From an uncultured virus (IMG/VR IMGVR_UViG_3300045241_000137) (Duplodnaviria; Heunggongvirae; Uroviricota; Caudoviricetes): a stretch of DNA of 20,000 bases. Made by a program: the position numbers and the translations under genes. Where the stretch lies: IMG/VR virus record IMGVR_UViG_3300045241_000137; one strand, given 5' to 3'. Position 1 is the first letter of the stretch, and each line of letters opens with the position of its first letter. Under the pieces are notes generated by a model. It saw only the letters and a list, made by a program, of their open reading frames with translations. It was not told the DNA's origin and searched no databases. This document shows positions 1 to 16,151 of the stretch, in pieces.

Positions 1-540
1 GCACTGCATCGTCTTGCGCATGAACTGCGTCATCCCGAAATAGCGCTCGTGCTGCGACGGGCGCCGGCGCGTGAAGCAGCGGGTCTTGAACAGGCCTTGC
101 CCGCCGATGTGCGCGGCGACCTTGAACGCTCGTTTGACGCGAGCCGGCGCGACGGGTTCGGCGAAGCCGGGCTCGAACCCGAGCGCGTCGAGGTGCTGAT
201 GTTCGTCCATCACGGTGAGCATGATTCCGAGCCAGCCGGGCGGGACGATCGTGTCGGAGTCGATCTTGGCGAGGATCTCGGACTTGCAGTGACTGAGGGC
301 GTCGTTCATGGAGGCGACGGGCCCGCCGAACTGGGCGCGGACGATCTTCGTCTTGACAGGAAGTCCCGCTTCGAGCTGCTCGAGCAGCCACTCGTAGCAT
401 CCGTCTGTCGAGTTGTCGTCGCGGATGTGGAGGGTGCCGACGAGGTTCCAGTCGGTGTTGGCGAGCAGCGTCGAGAACGAGGCCTCGGTGAAGGCTCTAC
501 GGTTGTGCGAGCAAAAGAGGATGTCGCAGGCGGTCATCAC
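1..540 (-). CDS. GT2-family glycosyltransferase, 3' end runs off the window
   Basis: Not in the ORF track; manual translation MMTACDILFCSHNRR...HIRDDNSTDG...GGPVASMNDAL...LAKIDSDTIV shows the GT2 DDxSTDG and DxD motifs. GTG at 540 overlaps the upstream stop (GTGA). Confidence 0.85.
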   Translation of the reverse strand, partial: MMTACDILFCSHNRRAFTEASFSTLLANTDWNLVGTLHIRDDNSTDGCYEWLLEQLEAGLPVKTKIVRAQFGGPVASMNDALSHCKSEILAKIDSDTIVPPGWLGIMLTVMDEHQHLDALGFEPGFAEPVAPARVKRAFKVAAHIGGQGLFKTRCFTRRRPSQHERYFGMTQFMRKTMQC

Positions 541-1100
541 TTCACCTGCTTCGCCAGTTCGAGCATCTGCCTGCGTTCAAGAGAGTGATTTTTCGCGCGG
601 TACATGCGGTTGTCGGCCCAGGTGTGCGGCAAATACGTGAACGGCAGATCCACCAGGGAGCGCGGCGTGAGCGCGGTGAAGACGACGTCGCAGGTGCGGC
701 GGAAGAACTGCTCGTCGGTGTGCGGGTGGCGTGCGCGGAAGCGTGCGAACGCTTTGGCCGGCAGGTCGGCATCGAAGATGGCGCCGAAGCCGACCAAACA
801 GTTGTCGGTGTAGCGGTCGCGGTATTCGCGCGGCATGTTGGCCGTGACGTGGCCGGGCACGTAGGCCTTGAGCAGAGATTGGATGGAGTCGACCGGAAGT
901 TGCGCGTCGTCGTCGCAGACGAGCGCGACCGGAGTAACGATTCTCTCGATGGCCTCGTAGCGTCCGTAGACACTCAGGTCTTCTCCGACCGAGTTGTCCC
1001 AGATTCCGACTTCGTCGAACGGGAGGTGCCCGACGACCGGCTCTAGGTCGACGTCTCCTCTCGTCACGACGATCGCTGTCACGTCGCGTGCGTCGATCAT
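537..1100 (-). CDS. GT-A fold glycosyltransferase-like protein (187 aa)
   Basis: MIDARDVTAIVVTRGD...IWDNS...ALVCDDDAQL with a DxD-like motif after a beta strand. ATGA overlap supports the 1100 start. Confidence 0.6.
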   Translation of the reverse strand: MIDARDVTAIVVTRGDVDLEPVVGHLPFDEVGIWDNSVGEDLSVYGRYEAIERIVTPVALVCDDDAQLPVDSIQSLLKAYVPGHVTANMPREYRDRYTDNCLVGFGAIFDADLPAKAFARFRARHPHTDEQFFRRTCDVVFTALTPRSLVDLPFTYLPHTWADNRMYRAKNHSLERRQMLELAKQVK

Positions 1101-1357
1101 CTCTGCCCGCCGTACAGTCCGTGGGGCGCATAGCCCGTGGAGAGGTACGAGAGTCTTTCGTCGTCGGTCATCACAGGTGGCGCGTCCTCTTTCCGCGACC
1201 GATCTCCTACCTGCGGAACGTCTCCTTCGAGGACAAGCTCGCATTCTCCGCAGTAGCGGATGACCGGCCCGACGATCATGCCGACCTGGGGCTGAACGCA
1301 GAGGACGTAGTCGAGCATCACGCGATGCCGGCCAAGCAGGCAGCGCAGACGCTTCAT
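1097..1357 (-). CDS. Hypothetical protein (86 aa)
   Basis: MKRLRCLLGRH...YCGECE; ATGA overlaps at both ends. Confidence 0.6.
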   Translation of the reverse strand: MKRLRCLLGRHRVMLDYVLCVQPQVGMIVGPVIRYCGECELVLEGDVPQVGDRSRKEDAPPVMTDDERLSYLSTGYAPHGLYGGQR

Positions 1358-1935
1358 CCGAGCAGCTCGCTCACGGTCACGAACCTGTAGTCGCCGCTCA
1401 TCGTTTGGAGAATCTCCTCGACGGCGCGGACGGTGTTGTTCCGATGCGGCGTCTCCTGGTTCCCGTTCGATGCGACCCCGTCGTGCAGACCGACAATGCT
1501 CCCGTCCGCGACCTCGTCGTAGACGGTGTCGGCGATCATCCGGGCGGACCGGTTCACATCGTAGGTCTCGACGGTCGATCGGCAGTACGACAACCCGAGC
1601 GTTTCGGCGGCCTGCGCTGCCTGGCGGGTGACGCGATGCCACGGCGGCCGCCACCAGCGAATGATCGTGTGGCCGTTCAGCATGATCTGCTCGACGGTGT
1701 CGGCGAGCTGCTGCTGGATCTCGGTGGCGCCGAGTTCTTCGACGAGGCGGTGGTCCCAGCCGTGCACGCCGAGCTCGTGGCCTTCGTTGATCGTCCGGCG
1801 GATGACGTGGTCGTAGCCGCAGTTGACGCCGAGGACGAAGAATGTGGCGTGCGCGTTGTGGACGGCGAGCGCGTCGAGGATCGGCGCTGTCCAGCGGCTA
1901 GGGCCGTCGTCCAGAGTTAACGCGATTCGTTTCAC
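1354..1935 (-). CDS. Polysaccharide deacetylase, NodB/CE4 family (193 aa)
   Basis: IALTLDDGP, ATFFVLG, GHELGVHGWDH, WRPPW and IVGLHDG match the CE4 motifs. GTG start at 1935 with GTGA overlap. Confidence 0.92.
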   Translation of the reverse strand: MKRIALTLDDGPSRWTAPILDALAVHNAHATFFVLGVNCGYDHVIRRTINEGHELGVHGWDHRLVEELGATEIQQQLADTVEQIMLNGHTIIRWWRPPWHRVTRQAAQAAETLGLSYCRSTVETYDVNRSARMIADTVYDEVADGSIVGLHDGVASNGNQETPHRNNTVRAVEEILQTMSGDYRFVTVSELLG

Positions 1936-2606
1936 GGGGCGCGCTCCGCGATGATCGCGCGCATCTCCGTCGCATTCCCCTGCGCTCCTAGATACCGGGC
2001 GGTCAGCTCGGGGTTGCAGTCTGTCGCGCTCTCGCGCTCGTGGTGCAGATGGAAAACGCTGCCGGGGAACCGTTCGTGCGGCCGGTACAGGGTGTCGAGG
2101 GCGGCGACGGTTGCCTTGTCGATCCAGCCCCATCCTTGCCAGCGCTCGTCGAAGCCGACGATCGTGTCGAGCGCCACCCGTGGCAGCACCCAGATCGGAC
2201 TGAGCGAGGTGCGGTGAAAGAGCCGGTCGGGGGCGGCGGGCTGGCTGATCTCGACTTTCGGCGTGTCGACGCTTAACAGGTTCATGGTGTGCCTGGGGTT
2301 GAGTTGGTAGTAGCGGAGCGGGATGAACCATTGGCCGTACTGGGAGAGCTTGATCGCGTCCGCGACGGGCCGGTGGTTGAACGCGACCTCGCTCTCGGTG
2401 ACGACGATCGTGTCGCCGATCGCTTGCTCGAGACACAGGTTCCAGGCGCGTCCTTCGTTGAATGGCTCGCCGGTCTTGCCGCCGTCGTCTGAGACGACGA
2501 TCTGGGCGTCGGGGAACGCGTGCGTCCAGCGCTGGCGCATCCACGCCCAGATGCGGTCGCGCTCGCCGCCGTCGGAGCGGAACGGGACGAGGATCGAGAT
2601 GCTCAC
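1932..2606 (-). CDS. GT2/GT7-like glycosyltransferase (224 aa)
   Basis: ISILVPFR, FNEGRAWN, GFDERWQGWGWID and FHLHH resemble the galactosyltransferase C-terminal motif GFDExFxGWGxED. The usual DxD position reads ESE. Confidence 0.8.
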   Translation of the reverse strand: MSISILVPFRSDGGERDRIWAWMRQRWTHAFPDAQIVVSDDGGKTGEPFNEGRAWNLCLEQAIGDTIVVTESEVAFNHRPVADAIKLSQYGQWFIPLRYYQLNPRHTMNLLSVDTPKVEISQPAAPDRLFHRTSLSPIWVLPRVALDTIVGFDERWQGWGWIDKATVAALDTLYRPHERFPGSVFHLHHERESATDCNPELTARYLGAQGNATEMRAIIAERAP

Positions 2607-3049
2607 AGCTTCAGCCCCTCGATCGCGAACACCTTTGGAGGCGCCCCGTGCCACTGCTGGATCAGGCTGTCGTCACGGAAATGCGAGAACCCCGGTGCGA
2701 CATCCTCGACGGTTAGGTCGACCATTTCCAGGTGCACTCGGACGAGCGACCTTGACGTCAACGTGACCGCGTCGTGGAAGCCGCCGTAGCGGGAGCTGCG
2801 CCGGTCGTCGGTGGCGTCTTCGGTGATCCTGATCACGCCTCCCGGCTTGAGGACACGCGCGAACTCCTCGAACACGTCGGGCCAGTCGGGCAGCGGGACC
2901 ATCATCAGTGCGTGCGACACGGTGATCGCTTCGACAGTCGCGTCCGGCGCGAACGGCAGGCCGTCCGTGAACGTCCATCCGTCGTAGGTGGGGTCGAGGT
3001 TCTCGAACCCGTCCAACGGGTGCGCGCCGGCGCCGAGGTTGAGCTTCAC
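2603..3049 (-). CDS. Class I SAM-dependent methyltransferase (Methyltransf_11-like, 148 aa)
   Basis: KLNLGAG motif I, LPFAPDATVEAI, and EFARVLKPGGVIRI. Confidence 0.88.
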   Translation of the reverse strand: MKLNLGAGAHPLDGFENLDPTYDGWTFTDGLPFAPDATVEAITVSHALMMVPLPDWPDVFEEFARVLKPGGVIRITEDATDDRRSSRYGGFHDAVTLTSRSLVRVHLEMVDLTVEDVAPGFSHFRDDSLIQQWHGAPPKVFAIEGLKL

Positions 3050-3123
3050 CTGAGCACCCAGGCCATGATGTGCCAGACAGCGACGATGTAGACCGCGGCC
3101 GCGAACGAGGCCACAATGGTCAC
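3046..3123 (-). CDS. Small hydrophobic single-TM peptide (25 aa)
   Basis: MTIVASFAAAVYIVAVWHIMAWVLR fills the gap exactly, with GTGA overlaps on both sides. Confidence 0.55.
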   Translation of the reverse strand: MTIVASFAAAVYIVAVWHIMAWVLR

Positions 3124-3881
3124 CTTCGCGGCCAGTTCCCGATCGGCCGCACCCGCGGCCGCGTCGCGCCCGGTGTCTCCTTCGCCAGAGGCCAGGCAGC
3201 GGTCGGGTTCCACATCCGGCGCCGCGACAAAAAAAGGTGCCGGTCGTGGCCGGCGTAGCGCATCCCTTTCTGGTAGGTGAGGTCGCGCTTGATGCTCCGG
3301 TCGAACGTCGGATGACGGTGCTCGACGAGCGAGTCCGGTGCTGCGACGAACTGGCCGCGCGAGATCGCCGTCTCGCAGAACTCCACGTCGACCGAGTTGT
3401 GCATGTACGCGTGGTGCAGCACCTCGTTCGGGTTGTCGATCGTCCCGAACGGGACGTAGTTGCGGTGCAGCAGCGGGTGCGTGGCGTGCTTGCCCGCCTT
3501 CACAAGCGGGTTCACCATGTCGTTCGTTCCGACCACCAGACAGCCGGTGCGGATGTGGGCGTTCAGGGCGGCGCGGAACCAGCCGGGATGAAACGACAGG
3601 TCGTCTGCGGCCAGCAGGATCCAGTCGCTCGAGGTCGTGCGGATGCCGCGGTTCATCTTGCGGGTGTAGTCGCGCGGACTGTTCGGCCACGGAACGATCT
3701 CGTGCCAGAGGCCGCGCGCGGCCAGTTCCGCGATCTCGCCGGCGTCCTCGGGGTTAACCAGGAACAGCATCGACGCCTCCACGTTCTCGCCGGCCAGCGA
3801 CGCCTCGAACGACGCGACCAAAGGCCCAATGTTCTGCGGACGGGCGAGGACCGGGACGAGCGCGACGAGCGTTGGTGTCAC
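3120..3881 (-). CDS. GT-A fold (GT2-like) glycosyltransferase (about 253 aa)
   Basis: LVPVLARP, YTRKMNRG, WILLAADDL, NSVDVEF and VEHRHP. The start is uncertain (GTG 3881 chosen). Confidence 0.75.
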   Translation of the reverse strand: MTPTLVALVPVLARPQNIGPLVASFEASLAGENVEASMLFLVNPEDAGEIAELAARGLWHEIVPWPNSPRDYTRKMNRGIRTTSSDWILLAADDLSFHPGWFRAALNAHIRTGCLVVGTNDMVNPLVKAGKHATHPLLHRNYVPFGTIDNPNEVLHHAYMHNSVDVEFCETAISRGQFVAAPDSLVEHRHPTFDRSIKRDLTYQKGMRYAGHDRHLFLSRRRMWNPTAAWPLAKETPGATRPRVRPIGNWPRR

Positions 3882-3892
3882 GGACGGTGACG

Positions 3893-4951
3893 TTAGGAAC
3901 TCGCTCGGACGAGCGGCAAACCGACAGGGACGAGAGCGTTGTGGCGGAACGGCGTGTAGTCGACGTGGTGTTGCGGGCGCCCCCACTTCTCACTGACGGT
4001 CACGACATCCGGGTGCTGCGCGAGCAGCGACTCCGCCATCGCAAGGCGACCGTCATCGGCGTACAGCTCATCGGTGTTGCCGCCGCTCATGTGCATCGTC
4101 TCGACCTTGTGGGCCTGATAGGCGTTGAGCAAGACGGTCACCCACCCGGCCTTCAACACTCGCAACGAAAGGTCGGTGTCCTCGTTGTAGCGTCCGCGCC
4201 AGCGGAATGGCAACGCGTGATTGATCAGGATGCACGAGTAGACCCGCGTGTTCAGACGATAGGGCGGAAGATCCGGGTGGGCACCATCCGCGAATCCCCG
4301 GTACTGCAAACCAGCCAATCCGACATTCTCATACCGATCGACGAAGTTCTCACAGGGAATGAAAGGGTTTTCGTCCTTGATGATGCTCGTGCGGTTGTGG
4401 TTCAATCGAGCGAAGTCCTCGATGTTGTCGTCGAGAATCCAGTGGCGCGCTGCACCCGACTCGACCGCGTGGTCCCAGACCCAGTTCCGCGCCGGGATCG
4501 AACCTTGTCCGAGATCGCCGAACGGGAGTAAAAGAATCTTCTCCTCGTCCACGTGCTCCGCATACAGATCGCGCTCCTGCGGCTCGACAACAATCCGGTA
4601 AGCGATCCCCAACTTGTCTAGGGCAACGTACGTCAGCCGATTCCAGAAACCAGCCGGCCTGCCCTTCGAGATGATGTAAATCGGGTAACGATTCGGCAAA
4701 ACCTTCTCCGGTTCAAACTCACGAACCCACCCGTCCGTCGGTGTCTTCTTGAACGGATACCACAATCCACGCTGCCTGCCAGGGTTATGACAGCCAACGA
4801 GCTCAAGAAACGCGTGCCGATCCTCAACGGTCCGAAAATAGACGCGAAGCGAACCGCCATGCGGTCGCTCATCACCCTGAACGAACTCGGGCATGCCCTC
4901 CCAGTGCTCGACCCACGAAGGATCGACATCGAAAAGGCGACTCTCGCTCAC
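3893..4951 (-). CDS. TET-associated (TAGT)/GREB1-like circularly permuted glycosyltransferase with an N-terminal WEGMPEF domain (352 aa)
   Basis: YPIYIISKGR, ARNWVWDH, HWILDDNI, NTRVYSCILI, WRGRYNEDTDLSLRVLKAG and GGNT are motifs I recognise from this phage family. Confidence 0.8.
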   Translation of the reverse strand: MSESRLFDVDPSWVEHWEGMPEFVQGDERPHGGSLRVYFRTVEDRHAFLELVGCHNPGRQRGLWYPFKKTPTDGWVREFEPEKVLPNRYPIYIISKGRPAGFWNRLTYVALDKLGIAYRIVVEPQERDLYAEHVDEEKILLLPFGDLGQGSIPARNWVWDHAVESGAARHWILDDNIEDFARLNHNRTSIIKDENPFIPCENFVDRYENVGLAGLQYRGFADGAHPDLPPYRLNTRVYSCILINHALPFRWRGRYNEDTDLSLRVLKAGWVTVLLNAYQAHKVETMHMSGGNTDELYADDGRLAMAESLLAQHPDVVTVSEKWGRPQHHVDYTPFRHNALVPVGLPLVRASS

Positions 4952-5163
4952 ACGTCCCCGTCAAGAACACGGCGTGCATACGCAGCCATCTGCTCCGCGT
5001 CCCGTCCGTTCGCGCGCGCCGAGCGATTCGGCGAGGCTAGATGTTCCAGGGCGTCACGCAACGCCAGGTAATCCTGGGCCATGAGCGAGACGGCGCCCGG
5101 CGCTTGCGTGTCGGCCCACTCCTCCGCGAGCTCGACGATCTGCTGCCTGGTCTTCTCGCTCAC
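4948..5163 (-). CDS. Hypothetical protein (71 aa)
   Basis: GTGA overlaps with terL and with the TAGT-like gene. Confidence 0.65.
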   Translation of the reverse strand: MSEKTRQQIVELAEEWADTQAPGAVSLMAQDYLALRDALEHLASPNRSARANGRDAEQMAAYARRVLDGDV

Positions 5164-6791
5164 CGGATCGCCTGCAACGAGCCCTGCTCCACAGACCCGC
5201 CCCTTGCCCTGCCCAACCTGGCGTGTGCCTTCCGTCCGGCGCCGCGCGACCAGATCACCGCCTGCGTGAACGCATCGACGTCGTCGTCATGCTCCGCGTT
5301 CGGGAACGCCGCCGCCTGGTCGATCAACTGCTGCGTGAAATCAGGGGTGCCCATCGGGTCGTAAAACGAAGGAAGCGACGGGTTCGCCATGCCCGGCACC
5401 CACACGTTCTTCCCCTCCAGCGCCGGCTCCGCAGCCTCCGCGCGCGCGACCTTGGAGGCGTCGCTGTTGAACGGGATGATCCCCCTGAGTTCGCGTTGCA
5501 GTTCGAGGATGATGTCGGGGCCGTTCGTCTTGTTCTCGATCAGGATCGAGTGCGGAGTGTGCTGCCATTCCTTGTCGACCCATCCGGACAGGTCACGGAT
5601 CGCCTGCTTCGTCTTCGACAGGCTCATCCGTTCTTTCCTGACCGCGAGCAGATACATGTTCGGTCCCGACAACCCCCAGAGCTGGCCGACGACGAAGTCG
5701 TTGACCGACCGGTCCTTGAACGCCGTGTCCCACGACTGCACAAGCCGGTGAAACCTGGGCAGGTGCTGGCGTTGCCCATCATCAAGCCACCAGCGCGGAA
5801 AGAACTGCCAGTGCGAGCGCTTCAGGATCGCGCCCTCCCGCGCCGAAGGCCGCTGCTGCAACTGTCCCGCAGCCCTGAACGACGCCAACGTCTTCGCCAA
5901 CGCGTCCGACGACCGGGCCGACCGGCGTGCCGGACACAGCAGTTCGCCCTCCTGCTCGCGCGCGTCCCCCAGGATCACCCGTCCCGAAGGCAACCGCACC
6001 TTCGGCGGCGTGACCAACGGATGCCTGGCCTCGTACCGCTCCGGCAAACACAGCACCTCCCACTCGTCCGGCGACTTCTCCAACACATGCCCGATCAAGT
6101 CCTTTTCGTGCAAGCGCTGCGCGATGATCACCTCGCAACCCGCCTCCGGGTCCTTGTAACGGTGCGGCAGAGACCCGTCATGGAACTCGATCACCTGCTC
6201 ACGATCCTTGTTCGACAAAATCTCCGCCGCGTCGTGCGGATCGTCGATCACGATCACATCCGCATGCTGGCCCGTCGCGCCAGACATCGGGGTCGCCATC
6301 CGCGACCCGCCCCGGTTGTTCGAGAAACGATTGCGCGCGTTCTCGTCCTCGCGCAACACAAACTTCTTGCCCCACCGCTGCTGAAACCACGACGACAAAA
6401 TCAGCATCCGCGACAGCGCCGCGAACTTCTCCGCCAGCTCCCGCTTGTACGAACACGTCAAATGCCCCCTAGACGGCCTGGACGTCCACTCCCACGCCGG
6501 AAAACACACCGACGCCACCGTCGACTTCGTCATCCCAGGCGGAAGACAGATCACCAGCCGTCGGATCTCGCCCGACGACACCGCCTCCAGATGCTCGCAG
6601 ACAGCGTCGATATGCCAGCCCGCCGTCAGCGGCTTCCCATCGTCGTAGAGCGGCACCCCCGACCACGCGTTCTGCACGAACAACCGCAGCGACCCCGACC
6701 ACTCCAGCGCCTGCTCCTCAAACGCCTGCCCACGCTGCATCCGCTCCACCGCCGCAACCGCCTCCGCAGCCGTCAAAATCCCCGCGGCCAT
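5160..6791 (-). CDS. terL: Terminase large subunit (543 aa from ATG 6791)
   Basis: Walker A-like ICLPPGMTKST, Walker B VIVIDDPHD, coupling motif IAQRLH, nuclease QSWDTAFK and HDDDVDAFTQA. TGATG overlap at 6791. Confidence 0.95.
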   Translation of the reverse strand: MAAGILTAAEAVAAVERMQRGQAFEEQALEWSGSLRLFVQNAWSGVPLYDDGKPLTAGWHIDAVCEHLEAVSSGEIRRLVICLPPGMTKSTVASVCFPAWEWTSRPSRGHLTCSYKRELAEKFAALSRMLILSSWFQQRWGKKFVLREDENARNRFSNNRGGSRMATPMSGATGQHADVIVIDDPHDAAEILSNKDREQVIEFHDGSLPHRYKDPEAGCEVIIAQRLHEKDLIGHVLEKSPDEWEVLCLPERYEARHPLVTPPKVRLPSGRVILGDAREQEGELLCPARRSARSSDALAKTLASFRAAGQLQQRPSAREGAILKRSHWQFFPRWWLDDGQRQHLPRFHRLVQSWDTAFKDRSVNDFVVGQLWGLSGPNMYLLAVRKERMSLSKTKQAIRDLSGWVDKEWQHTPHSILIENKTNGPDIILELQRELRGIIPFNSDASKVARAEAAEPALEGKNVWVPGMANPSLPSFYDPMGTPDFTQQLIDQAAAFPNAEHDDDVDAFTQAVIWSRGAGRKAHARLGRARGGSVEQGSLQAIR

Positions 6792-6919
6792 CAGCCGACC
6801 AGCCTCGAACAAGGGTTCGAGTCCGCGCGGCTCTCGTAGAACTCACGGACGTCTTCGTAGACCACCCACGGCGCGATCCAGATCGCCAGTCGTTCGCGCA
6901 GCCGCTCGACCCACCTCAT
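6791..6919 (-). CDS. Small hypothetical protein (42 aa; may extend in frame to ATG 7102)
   Basis: GAGG 8 nt before ATG 6919; stop overlaps the terL start. Confidence 0.45.
   Translation of the reverse strand: MRWVERLRERLAIWIAPWVVYEDVREFYESRADSNPCSRLVG
6805..6820. promoter_or_regulatory. Perfect actinobacterial-type LexA (SOS) box
   Basis: TCGAAC-AAGG-GTTCGA equals the TCGAAC-N4-GTTCGA consensus and lies 14 nt upstream of the terL ATG. Confidence 0.55.
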
Positions 6920-8396: not shown

Positions 8397-8554
8397 ACTG
8401 CGCGCGTTGCGGCTATCCGCCCGATTGGCATTCTGAGGATAACGGCGCGTGCCCGGACGACGATTGCCCGCGTCCGGATAGTGCAGCGGCGCCGGTTAGG
8501 TGGTCGCCGATGGTAAAGCCGGACCTAGACGATTACGACGGATTCGTCCGATGA
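8393..8554 (+). CDS. Small Cys/His Zn-binding-like protein (53 aa)
   Basis: MNCARCGYPPDWH...C...C; overlaps at both ends. Confidence 0.55.
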   Translation: MNCARCGYPPDWHSEDNGACPDDDCPRPDSAAAPVRWSPMVKPDLDDYDGFVR

Positions 8555-10188
8555 GTGATTCCGTATATGAGCGGGACGCGCGCAGGATCGGCGATGCGAT
8601 CGCGGCTATGCGCAGGGGTGAGACGTCAACGGCGGGTATCTACGATTACTCTCGCACGCTCGTGGACATCGATATGCGGCGCCGTGAAGCGTATAGCTAC
8701 GGCCGGCATTTTCCTTTGTTTCGCTACGTGCCCGCGAGCGGGCGTCGTAAAGAGCTCTTTGTGGTCAATGGTGACGAGTCGCCGCGGTCCGGCCGCGGCT
8801 GGGGTGGTTCGCGGACACCGGACCATATGAGCGATACGCGCCGGCTTATCGCGGCAACGGGCGCCGATAGTGTCGTTATCCCGTTTAGCGCGCTCGAGGG
8901 GGCAGGCATTGACATTGACTCGGTTCGCCCGGTTCACGTTCGCCCGGATGAGAACTGGACAGAGACGCGCCGCGCGGCATCCATTGACGATTTGCCCGAT
9001 AGCCTGCGCAGGTCTCTAGGAGAGTCTTGGTCTAGCGTCACAGGTCCGGATGCGAGCGGCGCGTATAGCTGGGATGTTCGGCGCCATCGGCTAGGCGATT
9101 GTTTGTTTTCGGCCGTGCGCGAGGGTAAGCGGTCCCGTTTTCTGTCCTCATTTGATTATGAGGAACCCGCGCCTATGTATTTTCTGGTTCAGGTCCCGCG
9201 CGGTGCAGGGGATACCGTTGAAACTGCGATTGACAGTTTGGCACCGCGCGCGGTTTGGGCCGCGCGGGCACGCAATATCCCGGTTTACCGTCAGGGCGAC
9301 ATCTTCTTTATAGAGACGCGTATGACGGACCTAGACCTAGAGCTGCGCGTGATAACTGCGCGTGCACGGTTGACGATGTTGGACCGCGATGCGCGGCCAC
9401 GGAGGGGTGAGACAGGCTATGTTCGCCCGTTGACCGCGGCGGAAACGCGCCGGATGCGGGCGATGGTACGCGCCGAATATTTGCGTATCACTCGGGACGC
9501 GCGGACCCAGCTCGAGCATAGAGACGCGCCGCGCGCCGGTCCTAAGACTGAGAAAGGTTCACGCGCGCGATGGGCAAAGGTTCGCGCCGGCGACGCGCGA
9601 GACCTAGAAGTAGCGCGGGCGAATCTTCGGCGCGCGACTCTAGGCGGACGGCCGGAACGGTATTCGCACTACGGAGAAATGGATCGATACGCGCCGGTGC
9701 AGCGCTACACGAGGATGAGTCCGCTGCAGTATGAGCGGGCTACGATTGCGGCGCGCGTGAAGCGTGCCCGCGAAGCGCTCGAGACCGTGCAGGATCGCGC
9801 GGCGCGTAATGCGATGGGACGCGCCGCGGCGCGCGACGTCTATAGGGCGCCGCTCACGGCGGGACCGGCCGCGATTGTTGCTATGCGTATGGCACGGTCC
9901 GCGGCGCGCGCAAAGTTCTACCCGCAAGAGACCGGCGCCGGCTATGACGCGCACCGGCGCGCCGTTCGCAACGTCCTATCCATTTACGGGACCGCTCATA
10001 CCGCGCGTGAAGTTGCGCGCGTAAGAGGGGGCGCCGTTTATGTTCGCGGCAAGGTCTCGCACCGGCCCGAACTAGACGACGGCCGGCCCAGCCGTTGGGA
10101 TACACGGCCGGAACATAGGCCGCTCGAGTTGCGCGACGATTGTTGGTATCTCGCGGTTCGCAATCGTGTCCCGAGGTCCCGCGCGTGA
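8551..10188 (+). CDS. Large phage hypothetical protein with RQGDIFF motif and Arg-rich insert (545 aa)
   Basis: Long ORF with YSYGRHFPL, HRLGDCLF, RQGDIFFIE, HTAREV, YVRGKVSH and EHRPL...WYLAVRN; ATGA overlap. Confidence 0.85.
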   Translation: MSDSVYERDARRIGDAIAAMRRGETSTAGIYDYSRTLVDIDMRRREAYSYGRHFPLFRYVPASGRRKELFVVNGDESPRSGRGWGGSRTPDHMSDTRRLIAATGADSVVIPFSALEGAGIDIDSVRPVHVRPDENWTETRRAASIDDLPDSLRRSLGESWSSVTGPDASGAYSWDVRRHRLGDCLFSAVREGKRSRFLSSFDYEEPAPMYFLVQVPRGAGDTVETAIDSLAPRAVWAARARNIPVYRQGDIFFIETRMTDLDLELRVITARARLTMLDRDARPRRGETGYVRPLTAAETRRMRAMVRAEYLRITRDARTQLEHRDAPRAGPKTEKGSRARWAKVRAGDARDLEVARANLRRATLGGRPERYSHYGEMDRYAPVQRYTRMSPLQYERATIAARVKRAREALETVQDRAARNAMGRAAARDVYRAPLTAGPAAIVAMRMARSAARAKFYPQETGAGYDAHRRAVRNVLSIYGTAHTAREVARVRGGAVYVRGKVSHRPELDDGRPSRWDTRPEHRPLELRDDCWYLAVRNRVPRSRA

Positions 10189-12784: not shown

Positions 12785-13210
12785 ATGAGTGGTACGACTG
12801 GCAGCATCGAGGCGGCGGGCGCGCATTTGGAGGCGGCTCGCGCTGAGTTCGAGGCGTATTCGGAGGATGGGCAGATGACGTCGCTCATCGCGGACGCGTG
12901 GGATTTGACGGCCGCGGCGCTCGGGAGGATCGCGGCGCTAGAGACTGAGCAGCAGGCGGGGGTGTCGGCCGCGTCCCGTGGTCAGGTGCACGTCGTCGCG
13001 TATGACGACGTGGTAGTCGTTCGGCTTTACGACCAGACGAGGGACAATCCGGTTGAGCTGAACGTGGCGAAGCGCGGTGATGGTCTGGTGGCGGTCGGAA
13101 TGGAGGATCGCGACTCGGGCAACGTCGAGCTTTGGACGGCCGTAAATGCGGACGCGTTGCGTGCAGCGCTCGCGCTCGTGTGTGTCGGTTCCGTCTCGGT
13201 GGAGGTGTAG
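12785..13210 (+). CDS. Hypothetical protein (141 aa)
   Basis: Strong AGGAGG RBS. Confidence 0.8.
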   Translation: MSGTTGSIEAAGAHLEAARAEFEAYSEDGQMTSLIADAWDLTAAALGRIAALETEQQAGVSAASRGQVHVVAYDDVVVVRLYDQTRDNPVELNVAKRGDGLVAVGMEDRDSGNVELWTAVNADALRAALALVCVGSVSVEV

Positions 13211-13212
13211 CG

Positions 13213-13878
13213 ATGGAGGCTTTCGAGACGTTCGAGCATGCGGGCTTCGTGTGCGAGCTGCACTACGACGAGGCTGCTCCGTCGCCGGCCGACTGGGACC
13301 AGCTTGGGACGGTCTACCAGTTCGGCCGCGCCTGGCTGCAGGGAGCGGAGAGCGCGTCCGGAGACATCGAGGAGGCGCACGAGCGCAACCGCCCCGGGCT
13401 TGTCGTTCGGGCTTTGCGCATGGCGGGCGAGACGGCGGTGTTGTTCCAGTTTCAGGACTACGGGTCGGGCGGTTCGCGGATCCTGGCGTTGGACGACGGC
13501 GAGGACGATCGGGCGACGGGCTATATCTCGACGACGGATGCGCGCGGCCGGGAGCTCGGGATTCCCGAGAAGGATGGGGAGGCGGAGAGGCAGTTGCGCG
13601 GCGAGCTGAAGGACTGGGACGCGTGGGTGTGCGGCGAGGTTGTCGGCTATGTGGTGCGCGAGGACGTGAAGACGTCGAACGGAGCGGACGTCGGCGAGGT
13701 CGTTCACTCGGTTTGGGGCTTCTACCCGGAGCGGGACGTCGACGGGAGCGACGGCTACGAGTACGTTCGTCAGGAGGCGCGGGACGCGGCCGAGTCGGAG
13801 CGGGACTCGCGGGCGGAGCGTGCCAGGGTGGCGGCGGCGGGGTGGGCGATGGCGCACGGTCAGACGGTGACGGCATGA
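13213..13878 (+). CDS. Acidic phage hypothetical protein (221 aa)
   Basis: GGAGG RBS; GEVVGYVV...HSVWGFY resembles a recurrent uncharacterised phage family. Confidence 0.82.
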   Translation: MEAFETFEHAGFVCELHYDEAAPSPADWDQLGTVYQFGRAWLQGAESASGDIEEAHERNRPGLVVRALRMAGETAVLFQFQDYGSGGSRILALDDGEDDRATGYISTTDARGRELGIPEKDGEAERQLRGELKDWDAWVCGEVVGYVVREDVKTSNGADVGEVVHSVWGFYPERDVDGSDGYEYVRQEARDAAESERDSRAERARVAAAGWAMAHGQTVTA

Positions 13879-14060
13879 CCGCCGGGTGGCCTTGGATCGT
13901 GCTCAAGGAGGACCCGCACGACCAGAGCATTACCGCGCACGGGCCTTTCGTTCGGGAGGCGGACGCGTGGGAGCGGGCGCAAGCGCTCGCGGACGAGTCG
14001 GGCGACGATGACGTGCACGAGCATTTCGTGTGCGTGCAGCTTGTGCCGGTGACAGCATGA
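13875..14060 (+). CDS. Hypothetical protein (61 aa)
   Basis: MTAGWPWIVLKED...HGPF; ATGA overlaps. Confidence 0.7.
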   Translation: MTAGWPWIVLKEDPHDQSITAHGPFVREADAWERAQALADESGDDDVHEHFVCVQLVPVTA

Positions 14061-14329
14061 TCGTCCAGGCCCGTCTATGCACGGTCGAGGGTAAGGGGAT
14101 CGGTTGGTGGCGCAACTACTTCACGGATTGCGAGGACCTGCGCGATGCGTCCTGGTTCGCGCGCGATCTTGTGCCGAAGTGTCAGGTCCGCGTGAAGGAC
14201 GGGCGCGAGGTTGTGTTCGGTCCGTGTCGTGCGGAGGAGCTGCAGGCCGTCCGCGGGGACTGGCCGAACGGTTCGCGGTCGACGGTCGGCGCCACTAACG
14301 GCGCGGACGGGGGTGGGCTCGACACCTAA
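14057..14329 (+). CDS. Hypothetical protein (90 aa)
   Basis: ATGA overlap; stop lies 7 nt before the ribozyme. Confidence 0.65.
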   Translation: MIVQARLCTVEGKGIGWWRNYFTDCEDLRDASWFARDLVPKCQVRVKDGREVVFGPCRAEELQAVRGDWPNGSRSTVGATNGADGGGLDT

Positions 14330-14336
14330 CCCTGTT

Positions 14337-14410
14337 TCGCGGGTGCCGTCTGATGAGACCGCGACGAAACCCCCGCCCTGGCTTTACCCCCCTCGGGCGG
14401 GGGTCACGGC
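14337..14410 (+). ncRNA. Type I hammerhead self-cleaving ribozyme with loop II pseudoknot
   Basis: Stem I GCCGU(14345-49)/ACGGC(14406-10); core CUGAUGA(14350-56); G14357-C14365 closing loop ACCGCGA; GAA(14366-68); 10-bp stem III 14369-78/14395-14404; GUC(14403-05) cleavage triplet; UCGCGG(14337-42) pairs with CCGCGA(14359-64). Confidence 0.93.
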
Positions 14411-14443
14411 TAAATGTTCACTCTCTACCGTTAGGAGCGTTCG

Positions 14444-14731
14444 ATGACTACCGCAACAACGCAGGTGCTTACACAAGTGGAATGGGAAGGGGAAGACTTC
14501 GCGAAAGGCGAAGCGATCGCGCGGGCGCTCGGATATGAGCAGTTCGCCTACACGTCGACGTCCGCGCTCTGGGGCCTGTTCTGTCTGCCGGAGAATCCGC
14601 GGACGTGGCGGGGGAATCGTCAGGCTTTGCAGGGCGGTTGCATCGTGAAGACGCGCGAGCTCGGATTCCTGTTTGTGCAGGACGGCGAGGACCGCGATCC
14701 CGAATCAGTATGGGGCGAGGTTCAGCTATGA
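14444..14731 (+). CDS. Hypothetical protein (95 aa)
   Basis: AGGAG RBS within TCTACCGTTAGGAG. Confidence 0.8.
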   Translation: MTTATTQVLTQVEWEGEDFAKGEAIARALGYEQFAYTSTSALWGLFCLPENPRTWRGNRQALQGGCIVKTRELGFLFVQDGEDRDPESVWGEVQL

Positions 14732-15417
14732 CTTATCGCGAGCGGAGAGAAGCCCGCGCGGAACGGTTGCGCGAGTGGGCCGAGAAGCGCGAACGGGACG
14801 CCGGCGCGGTGCTCCAGTCGCACGAGCGCTACCGAGGCGACCACGCGTTCAACTTTCAGCCGGGCCATATTCCGGAGCGCGCACGCGTGATCGCGCAGGC
14901 CGACAGGGCGTTCGAGTCGCTGGACAAGGCCGCGGGGATGGCGAGCCGCGCGGCGGGGATCGAGGCGCAGGACGCGCACGCGATCTACTCCGACGACGAC
15001 GACGCGATCGAACGGCTCGAGCAGCGGATCGCGGAGCTCGAAGCGGAGCGGTCTAGGTACAAGGTTTTCAATGCGTCGTGTCGCAAGGTCGACGGCGGCG
15101 ACCCTTCCCTGCTGGACGAGAAGCAGCGCGATAACCTCGCGACGATCCTGCGCGTGTGCCCGTACCAGCTCGGCAAGCGCGGCGAGCTGATCTACACAAA
15201 CCTGACGGCGAACATCGCTCGCAACCGCAAGCGGCTCGAGGAGTTGCGCCGGAACGCGGCAACGGTCGAGGCGGGTAGCCGCGGCAACGGCCGCCCGATG
15301 GTCTCGAGGTTTGCGTCCGAGTGTGCAGGGTGCGGCGAGACGATCGACAAGGGGGCCGAGATTGTCTACTACCGCGTGACGCGCGAGGCTCTGCACGCGT
15401 CCTGCGTGGCCGAATGA
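14728..15417 (+). CDS. DUF3560-like protein with C-terminal CxxC...HxxC Zn finger (229 aa)
   Basis: MTYRERREARAERLREWAEKR, QPGH, IYSDDDDAIERLEQRIAELE, TNLTANIARNRKRLEEL and ECAGCGETIDKG...LHASC. Confidence 0.8.
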   Translation: MTYRERREARAERLREWAEKRERDAGAVLQSHERYRGDHAFNFQPGHIPERARVIAQADRAFESLDKAAGMASRAAGIEAQDAHAIYSDDDDAIERLEQRIAELEAERSRYKVFNASCRKVDGGDPSLLDEKQRDNLATILRVCPYQLGKRGELIYTNLTANIARNRKRLEELRRNAATVEAGSRGNGRPMVSRFASECAGCGETIDKGAEIVYYRVTREALHASCVAE

Positions 15418-15740
15418 TGGCCGGCGGGTTCGACGTCGTTATGGGCGGCGATCCGTCGCCGGAGGATCTTTCGTGGTGCCGCCAACAGCTCGACATCGTT
15501 CGCGACGGCGGCATCTGGGGGGTGCCGCGTTCCGGGCTTCTGTTCACGCGCCGCGGCGACGGCTTCGTGCTGACCGCCCGGATGCCGTGGATCGAGGAGA
15601 TGGAGCAGGCCTACCTGGAGGGTCGGGACGTGCCATCTAGCGCCGATGCTTTGCGCGCCTACCAGGACGCCGACTACGAGCTGATTCGGTCGCGGTTCGC
15701 CGCGGCCGGCATCGAAGTGACGGACGGCACAGGTGGGTAA
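15414..15740 (+). CDS. Hypothetical protein (108 aa)
   Basis: DGGIWGVPRSG...IRSRFAAAGIEV; ATGA overlap. Confidence 0.75.
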   Translation: MMAGGFDVVMGGDPSPEDLSWCRQQLDIVRDGGIWGVPRSGLLFTRRGDGFVLTARMPWIEEMEQAYLEGRDVPSSADALRAYQDADYELIRSRFAAAGIEVTDGTGG

Positions 15741-15891
15741 AACGACTGGTCCTGTCTACAGGTGCGGGAACTGCGATCGGCAGTTGAGGGGACGCGCGTG
15801 GGTGTTCTCGAGGTTCACGCACGCGCGTTTCTGCCCCGACGTCGAGGCCTGCATCGTCAGGGGCCGTAAGCGCAGGAAGGCGAAGCGGTGA
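15733..15891 (+). CDS. Small basic Zn-finger-like protein (52 aa)
   Basis: Not in the ORF track; MGKTTGPVYRCGNCDRQLRGRAWVFSRFTHARFCPDVEACIVRGRKRRKAKR fills the gap with a GTGA overlap. Confidence 0.65.
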   Translation: MGKTTGPVYRCGNCDRQLRGRAWVFSRFTHARFCPDVEACIVRGRKRRKAKR

Positions 15892-16151
15892 CGTTCGAGC
15901 AGCGCTACCACGTACCCCGCTCGCAAGTGTGGGCCGGCTCGCGCGGCCGCCAGTCGGGCCGCGTGCATCTGCACGTCATCGAGCGTTTCGACGTCGGCCG
16001 GATCCACCGCGACGCGGGACAAGCGCTTTGCGGCCGCACCGGCTGGTACGAGCGCGCGGCCGACGCGGACGACCTGGCGAGCTCCGGGGTGTGCGCGCGG
16101 TGCGCTGACATCGCGGCGCGGGCCGGTGCCCTAGCGCTGGGGCTTTCGTGA
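15888..16151 (+). CDS. Hypothetical protein with H...C...CxxC motif (87 aa)
   Basis: RVHL...ALCGR...CARC; GTGA overlaps. Confidence 0.7.
   Translation: MTFEQRYHVPRSQVWAGSRGRQSGRVHLHVIERFDVGRIHRDAGQALCGRTGWYERAADADDLASSGVCARCADIAARAGALALGLS

Follow-up and report, generated by a model that had tools for sequence, protein, structure and literature searches.

Whether two small genes of an uncultured soil phage are separated by a self-cutting RNA, and what this RNA would do to the transcript containing it, is the question raised by a gap of 114 nt between the stop codon TAA of one gene (14327-14329) and the start codon ATG of the next (14444). The window, that is, the whole 20,000-nt stretch of DNA that was analysed and to which all positions refer, is a phage contig with 65% GC; among sequencing runs its DNA was traced to a single soil-metagenome DNA run, probably the source, and to no RNA run. 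An original prediction made from its letters had placed in this gap a hammerhead ribozyme with a one-pair stem II and a 5' pseudoknot, splitting an early-type operon.

Genomic setting

The large terminase is encoded on the minus strand (5160-6812; phrog_38, E 8e-76), while a plus-strand block of small genes, mostly without a family match, extends from about 7.3 kb to 19.1 kb. The ribozyme lies on the same strand as both of its neighbours. The upstream ORF (14030-14329, +) encodes 99 amino acids without a family match, and its stop codon is placed 7 nt before the first ribozyme element, the pseudoknot strand. The downstream ORF (14444-14731, +) encodes 95 amino acids, also without a family match, with homologues of 58% identity in the contigs L125 and L126, and is followed by the gene of a DUF3560 protein (14605-15417, +). 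Both flanking ORFs are backed by third-position GC and share one common frame, and the predicted cut falls 38 nt before the ATG. Neither a sigma-70-like promoter nor an intrinsic terminator was found in 13000-15500, which fits read-through transcription of this region. The label of early-type operon, which rests on the gene layout, is plausible for the locus.

Two other features of the contig deserve mention. A run of sugar enzymes adjoins the terminase on the minus strand of 1-4951, including a TET-associated glycosyltransferase (3893-4951, -; PF20691, E 3.6e-39), family 2 and galactosyl-type glycosyltransferases (1-540, 1932-2654 and 3120-3986, -) and a polysaccharide deacetylase domain (1354-2544, -), and this run could represent a DNA hypermodification or a cell-surface module. 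On the plus strand, a 562-aa protein of unknown function (8500-10188, +; phrog_29643, E 1.6e-31) found its sole relatives within the phage GenBank collection among hypothetical Gordonia phage proteins, at 30-34% identity, which hints at an actinobacterial host.

Architecture of the ribozyme

Read from the sequence, the element (14337-14410, +) begins with the 5' strand of the pseudoknot, UCGCGG (14337-14342), separated by a 2-nt spacer, GU (14343-14344), from stem I, in which GCCGU (14345-14349) pairs with ACGGC (14406-14410) over 5 bp, an assignment common to the sequence, the alignment to the Rfam family RF03152 and the R2 model described below. The sequence and the RF03152 alignment likewise agree on the core segment CUGAUGA (C3-A9, 14350-14356), on a stem II consisting of the single pair G10.1 (14357) with C11.1 (14365), and on the second core segment GAAA (G12, A13, A14 and A15.1, 14366-14369). 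The pair of stem II closes a 7-nt loop II, ACCGCGA (14358-14364), of the A-N5-A form of the RF03152 consensus. Stem III has 10 bp and a 16-nt loop (14369-14378 with 14395-14404), being formed by the pair A14369-U14404 and nine G-C pairs, CCCCCGCCC (14370-14378) with GGGCGGGGG (14395-14403). U16.1 (14404) and C17 (14405) follow, and the consensus position of hammerhead cleavage sets the predicted scissile bond at 14405/14406. The rest of the 38-nt leader (14411-14443, +) carries AGGAG at 14433-14437 and is predicted to be unstructured, the fold of 14406-14450 having a z of +0.63 against shuffles.

The hammerhead core is therefore complete (C3 U4 G5 A6 N7 G8 A9, G12 A13 A14, the pair A15.1-U16.1, and C at H17), and no core mismatch appeared in the alignment either to RF03152 or to the R2 model. 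Three helices surround it, the one-pair stem II being prolonged by the pseudoknot, whose six Watson-Crick pairs (14337-14342 with 14359-14364) provide the tertiary contact that joins the stem I side to that of stem II. On base-by-base rereading, everything that the original prediction had stated about the sequence (core, stems, pseudoknot, gap, ribosome-binding site and 38-nt leader) was found to be correct.

Covariance model searches and folding energies

A search with the Rfam hammerhead models had been proposed in the original prediction as a check. At curated thresholds Rfam gave no match in the window; below threshold, RF03152 (RAGATH-1 / pseudoknot hammerhead) matched with 35.6 bits where the cut-off requires 56.3, at an E of 0.011 for the 20 kb searched. 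This match spans the full model (1-77), its E becoming 1.4e-4 when the search comprised 251 nt, and RF03152 was the sole Rfam family with E <= 0.5 across the 20-kb window. The type I, type II, type III, HH9 and HH10 hammerhead families gave no match even at E <= 10 in the Rfam search of the 251 nt.

A second covariance model, R2, was built from an alignment (A5) of 14 compact-build ribozymes of other contigs, the window being excluded. It matched the window over its full length (1-65) with 43.6 bits and an E of 2.3e-10 (rough calibration), the next best match reaching 10.8 bits. Both the RF03152 and the R2 scores leave the pseudoknot uncounted. With the composition of the window, a perfect 6-bp partner of loop II is expected by chance in 0.6% of 8-nt flanks and in 1.4% of 12-nt flanks.

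As regards folding, nearest-neighbour energies amount to -27.0 kcal/mol for the nested hammerhead and to about -9.3 kcal/mol for the pseudoknot duplex. A competing nested fold, which pairs part of the core, reaches -37.9 kcal/mol, so that the active fold is disfavoured by nearest-neighbour models, which leave out tertiary contacts.

Relation to known pseudoknotted hammerheads

The crystal structure and kinetics of the pseudoknotted (PK) hammerhead were described by Zhan et al. (2024), who credit its discovery to Weinberg et al. (2015) (PMC11300833). In the crystal, loop II is base-paired with the loop of a 5-bp hairpin, helix IV, and the 6-bp pseudoknot helix so formed replaces helix II, while an A-rich linker occupies the minor groove of helix IV; cleavage is more than ten times faster than in an extended hammerhead (PMC11300833). 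The RF03152 consensus combines the same core, the one-pair stem II and the A-N5-A loop with a 5' hairpin that is followed by an AUAAAAU linker.

The window ribozyme resembles this family in its type I topology, its identical core, the G-C stem II closing a 7-nt A-N5-A loop, the 5-bp stem I, the replacement of helix II by a pseudoknot helix that loop II makes with sequence on the 5' side of stem I, and its site between small phage genes. Nevertheless, its score falls short of the gathering cut-off of the family, and two elements set it apart. Whereas in the classical PK form the pseudoknot strand is held in the loop of the 5-bp helix IV hairpin, the window has no helix IV; and the 7-nt A-rich linker (AUAAAA) of the classical form, with its minor-groove triplex, is deleted in the window, where the 2-nt GU stands instead. 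A remnant of helix IV was considered and rejected, since the only candidate, CCC (14330-14332) with GGG (14341-14343), has 3 bp, competes with two of the six pseudoknot pairs, leaves a 1-nt linker and has no counterpart in the compact relatives.

The two forms differ as well in where they occur. A pattern scan for the classical loop II retrieved 44 loci in IMG/VR and 14 in genome contigs (some five of these being apparent chance matches), nearly all of them low-GC crAss-like contigs with hairpin and linker, in which loop II and the hairpin loop covary plainly, whereas the window ribozyme belongs to a soil phage of 65% GC. Among the crAss-like RAGATH-1 loci of IMG/VR, nine (L009, L013, L015, L017, L024, L036, L040, L042 and L044) carry a different hairpin at the usual position of the 5' hairpin, and the complement of loop II lies 46-49 nt upstream in them, as against the usual 9-15 nt.

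Pseudoknots had previously been reported to stabilise hammerheads of all three types, and the dependence of a one-pair stem II on a 6-bp pseudoknot had been demonstrated by mutation and compensation (Perreault et al. 2011, PMC3088659). The metagenome hammerhead in which this was found is like that of the window in that a pseudoknot replaces the loop-loop contact and a 6-bp pseudoknot rescues a one-pair stem II; the tested example was, however, of type II, with loop I pairing to the 3' tail, while the window has a type I hammerhead in which loop II pairs to the 5' tail. Ribozyme class, pseudoknot, one-pair stem II and phage intercistronic setting are all, then, already known, and the ribozyme is less unusual than the heading of the original prediction suggested, because its design is essentially that of the RAGATH-1 / PK hammerhead. 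Where it differs from both the catalogued RF03152 and the crystallised PK hammerhead is, to judge by the sequence, in the lack of helix IV and of the triplex linker.

Compact relatives and covariation of the pseudoknot

Compact relatives were gathered by wider pattern scans and model searches of viral and metagenome contigs, and the hairpin-less build was found again in further contigs of high GC, from phages and metagenomes, its pseudoknot showing compensatory changes. Hairpin-less copies occur in L005 (one copy in the IMG/VR record behind it), L063, L087/L103, L081 (three in 1.4 kb), L106 (two) and a large group composed of L077/L078 and L079-L120, where a conserved leader, containing a 5-bp hairpin and AGGAG, comes after every copy. 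In total, the form without hairpin and linker is represented by about 20 unique sequences from at least five lineages. Its pseudoknot strand lies 0-3 nt from stem I, stem II has a single pair and stem I has 5-6 bp. When scanned on RF03152, the compact copies obtained 26-36 bits, all below the cut-off of 56.3, as compared with 69.2 bits for the classical L003 and 59.7 for the classical L010.

The relatives (L005, L063, L077/L078, L081, L087, L106, L108-L111, L120 and others) share with the window both the build and the location directly upstream of a gene start, the distance from the cut site to the next start being 8-40 nt; the intergenic, same-strand site just before a gene start is typical of them too. 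Several of the relatives occur as arrays (2-5 copies, with a conserved leader) or have a stem I whose 3' strand serves as ribosome-binding site; the window, in contrast, has a single copy, its AGGAG is separate, and its stem III is much longer (10 bp with a 16-nt loop). A Pfam search on the genes downstream of the relatives' ribozymes revealed no family in common.

The pairing of loop II with an upstream partner was assessed on the unique hammerheads with a 7-nt A-N5-A loop II and acceptable stems. A Watson-Crick partner of at least 5 bp, no more than 30 nt upstream, was present in 59 of the 71, the mismatched controls averaging 15% and not exceeding 28%. In 19 of the 59 the partner stood within 4 nt of stem I, with two more cases when one G-U pair was admitted.

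Eight sequences share the register of the window: the window itself, L005, the three copies of L081, the two of L106, and L087. In this set 95.8% of the cells of the six pseudoknot pairs are paired and the observed covariation score was reached by none of 500 shuffles, values to be read in the light of a small set, of a search pattern that fixed part of loop II and of a tested structure derived from the same sequences. Double-sided changes affect three of the six pseudoknot pairs (U-A to G-C, C-G to G-C and G-C to A-U), one double-sided change being the window's own G10-C34 as against C-G in the other seven sequences. Stem I covaries at four of its five pairs, and between the end of the pseudoknot strand and the core there are always 7 nt, made up of spacer and stem I. 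The central claim of the original prediction, a hammerhead whose stem II has one pair and whose loop II forms a pseudoknot with the 5' flank, is in this way backed both by the two model searches and by the covariation of the pseudoknot among the relatives.

The relatives also bear on a different role for the ribozyme, namely, instead of an effect on mRNA stability, a translation switch in which its fold would block ribosomes at gene 14444 until the cut and the release of the 5' fragment turned translation on. In L005, in the three copies of L081, in the two of L106 and in L087, the 3' strand of stem I is rich in purines and resembles a Shine-Dalgarno sequence (GGGAGG or GGGGU), and in these same four contigs the start codon is located 8-12 nt past the cut, so that a ribosome-binding site could be exposed once the 5' fragment is cut off and released; furthermore, ribozyme self-cleavage has been reported to enable translation initiation in eukaryotic RNA viruses (PMC13725137). 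In the window, however, the AGGAG is found 23 nt past stem I, outside every ribozyme helix, and the leader is unstructured whether cleaved or uncleaved, while even for the relatives the switch would be an idea drawn from their sequences. For the window we regard this role as distinctly unlikely. The copies with a stem I resembling a ribosome-binding site are L005:125-191(-), L081:1481-1545, 2128-2195 and 2819-2884, L106:686-750 and 1481-1545, and L087:1480-1541(-).

Arrays and altered copies

Several observations concern the arrays themselves. The IMG/VR record behind L077/L078 (G002), a 59-kb provirus, contains five copies in 4.1 kb (37229-41356), all on one strand. In these arrays, as well as in L079, L086, L092, L098, L099, L108-L111, L116, L119 and L120, each leader precedes a different gene, the leaders consisting of a 5-bp GCCGC/GCGGC hairpin and then AGGAG. 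In several array copies the upstream ORF appears to stop at the UGA within the CUGAUGA core.

Four array copies are altered, namely L111:2960-3021, L086:630-691(-), L086:1222-1295(-) and L079:977-1038. The first is short of one base in its CUGAUGA core and is probably dead; one of the four has a stem I mismatch, and in two of them GUA or GUU replaces GUC at the cut site. In L081 (1440-1560), a direct repeat of about 13 nt over the start codon region flanks the first hammerhead of the contig, which probably reflects repeated units of ribozyme plus gene start. Finally, L065 and L073, both from IMG/VR, have in common the 5' half of a hammerhead (stem I strand, core, loop II with its upstream complement, and GAAAC), after which they diverge directly into AGGAG and different genes, without a stem III; this arrangement may represent a copy that was broken or a joint left by recombination.

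Distribution among related phages

No near copy of the window ribozyme was found among 61 viral loci (retrieved with two patterns) and 14 genome loci. The sequence of its loop II occurred once elsewhere in the metagenomes, in L080, in a non-hammerhead context; this locus has neither stem I nor stem III and was taken as chance. A megablast of 13000-16000 against the phage GenBank collection, and a tblastn of the DUF3560 protein against the same collection, returned nothing, and no relatives of the two upstream ORFs were found. There was no hammerhead in the relatives of the DUF3560 protein (L059-L061), in L125/L126, which hold the relatives of the 95-aa protein, or in the whole records G003 (complete, 78 kb) and G004. 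Since the phages nearest by protein similarity do not carry the ribozyme, its presence is sporadic; Perreault et al. described a sporadic presence for the neighbouring genes of hammerheads (PMC3088659). The idea that the related phages have a promoter in place of the ribozyme was dropped, as neither a promoter nor a terminator was found upstream of the L126 homologue either.

This sporadic presence could be that of an inactive relic or of a chance look-alike without a role, a reading consistent also with the score below the Rfam cut-off, with the single copy of the motif in the 20-kb window, with the competing nested fold and with the existence of decayed copies among the relatives, such as L111:2960 without one of its core bases. 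Such a relic is nevertheless hard to reconcile with a core unchanged at every position and an R2 match of this E value, or with a perfect 6-bp pseudoknot that goes unscored in both models and lies in the register of the relatives. Moreover, stem I, stem III and pseudoknot are all intact, and a decaying copy would soon lose them. We therefore consider it quite improbable that the element is a relic, and the stretch is, on the evidence of its sequence and that of its relatives, very probably a real self-cutting hammerhead RNA.

The distribution could also be understood if the ribozyme marked the boundary of a gene cassette that is mobile or exchangeable, or served RNA ligation or circularisation, rather than simple mRNA processing. 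Compact hammerheads repeated before successive genes with a conserved leader, five of them in 4.1 kb of G002, would be in line with such a cassette, as would the sporadic occurrence of the ribozyme among related phages and the shared 5' half of L065 and L073 with its diverging continuation. Splicing or circular products were raised for hammerheads by Perreault et al., who detected none (PMC3088659). In the window, though, a single ribozyme leaves no unit that could be excised, visual inspection revealed no repeat of more than 4 nt on its flanks, and no ligase or RtcB-like gene was present among the window ORFs scanned. A cassette edge or a ligation function thus appears very improbable here, the least probable of the readings considered.

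Proposed role in the phage transcript

The reading that we favour, and hold to be likely, is that of a compact type I PK hammerhead which cuts a plus-strand multi-gene phage RNA and gives the two halves of the operon separate fates. The ribozyme would be transcribed within this RNA, which would fold with the 6-bp pseudoknot standing in for helix II and would then cleave itself between C14405 and A14406. The upstream RNA, with the genes up to 14329, would be left with a 2',3'-cyclic phosphate end right after the 10-bp, G+C-rich stem III, while the downstream RNA, from gene 14444 and the DUF3560 gene onward, would receive a 5'-OH and an unstructured 38-nt leader that begins with the stem I strand ACGGC and contains the ribosome-binding site. 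The halves of the operon would subsequently differ in decay and in translation, and the direction of any effect on stability is not to be inferred from sequence.

Related proposals exist in the literature. Clustered hammerheads were reported to flank prophage genes, and the processing of long phage transcripts was proposed as their function (PMC3088659), while the review by Weinberg, Weinberg and Hammann (2019) still calls the purpose of phage hammerheads undefined (PMC6765202). The uncoupling of the 14444/DUF3560 block from the upstream genes in stability or translation, put forward in the original prediction, would be an instance of the standing hypothesis for phage hammerheads (PMC3088659, PMC6765202).

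Implications

A broader proposition is that the hairpin-less PK hammerhead constitutes a distinct, minimal and widespread subclass of high-GC soil phages, missed by the catalogues and acting as a gene start module. We put this forward tentatively and think it rather unlikely to hold in full. If it were true, the ribozyme would be wired to the start of the next gene, and in some lineages the 3' strand of stem I would be the ribosome-binding site, freed by self-cleavage. In the window, cleavage would give gene 14444 a defined, unstructured 5'-OH leader. Such a module would be independent of promoters, and phages would gain and lose it gene by gene.

Other consequences concern the ribozyme class as such. 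That nature can dispense with helix IV and the triplex module is suggested by the compact form, which offers a smaller natural scaffold, of about 70 nt, for structural work and engineering. In addition, the curated Rfam thresholds miss the window as well as all the compact relatives scanned, and self-cleaving RNAs are consequently undercounted when the phages of high-GC soil viromes are annotated. For the old question of the role of hammerheads in phages, the locus adds one more clean intercistronic example.
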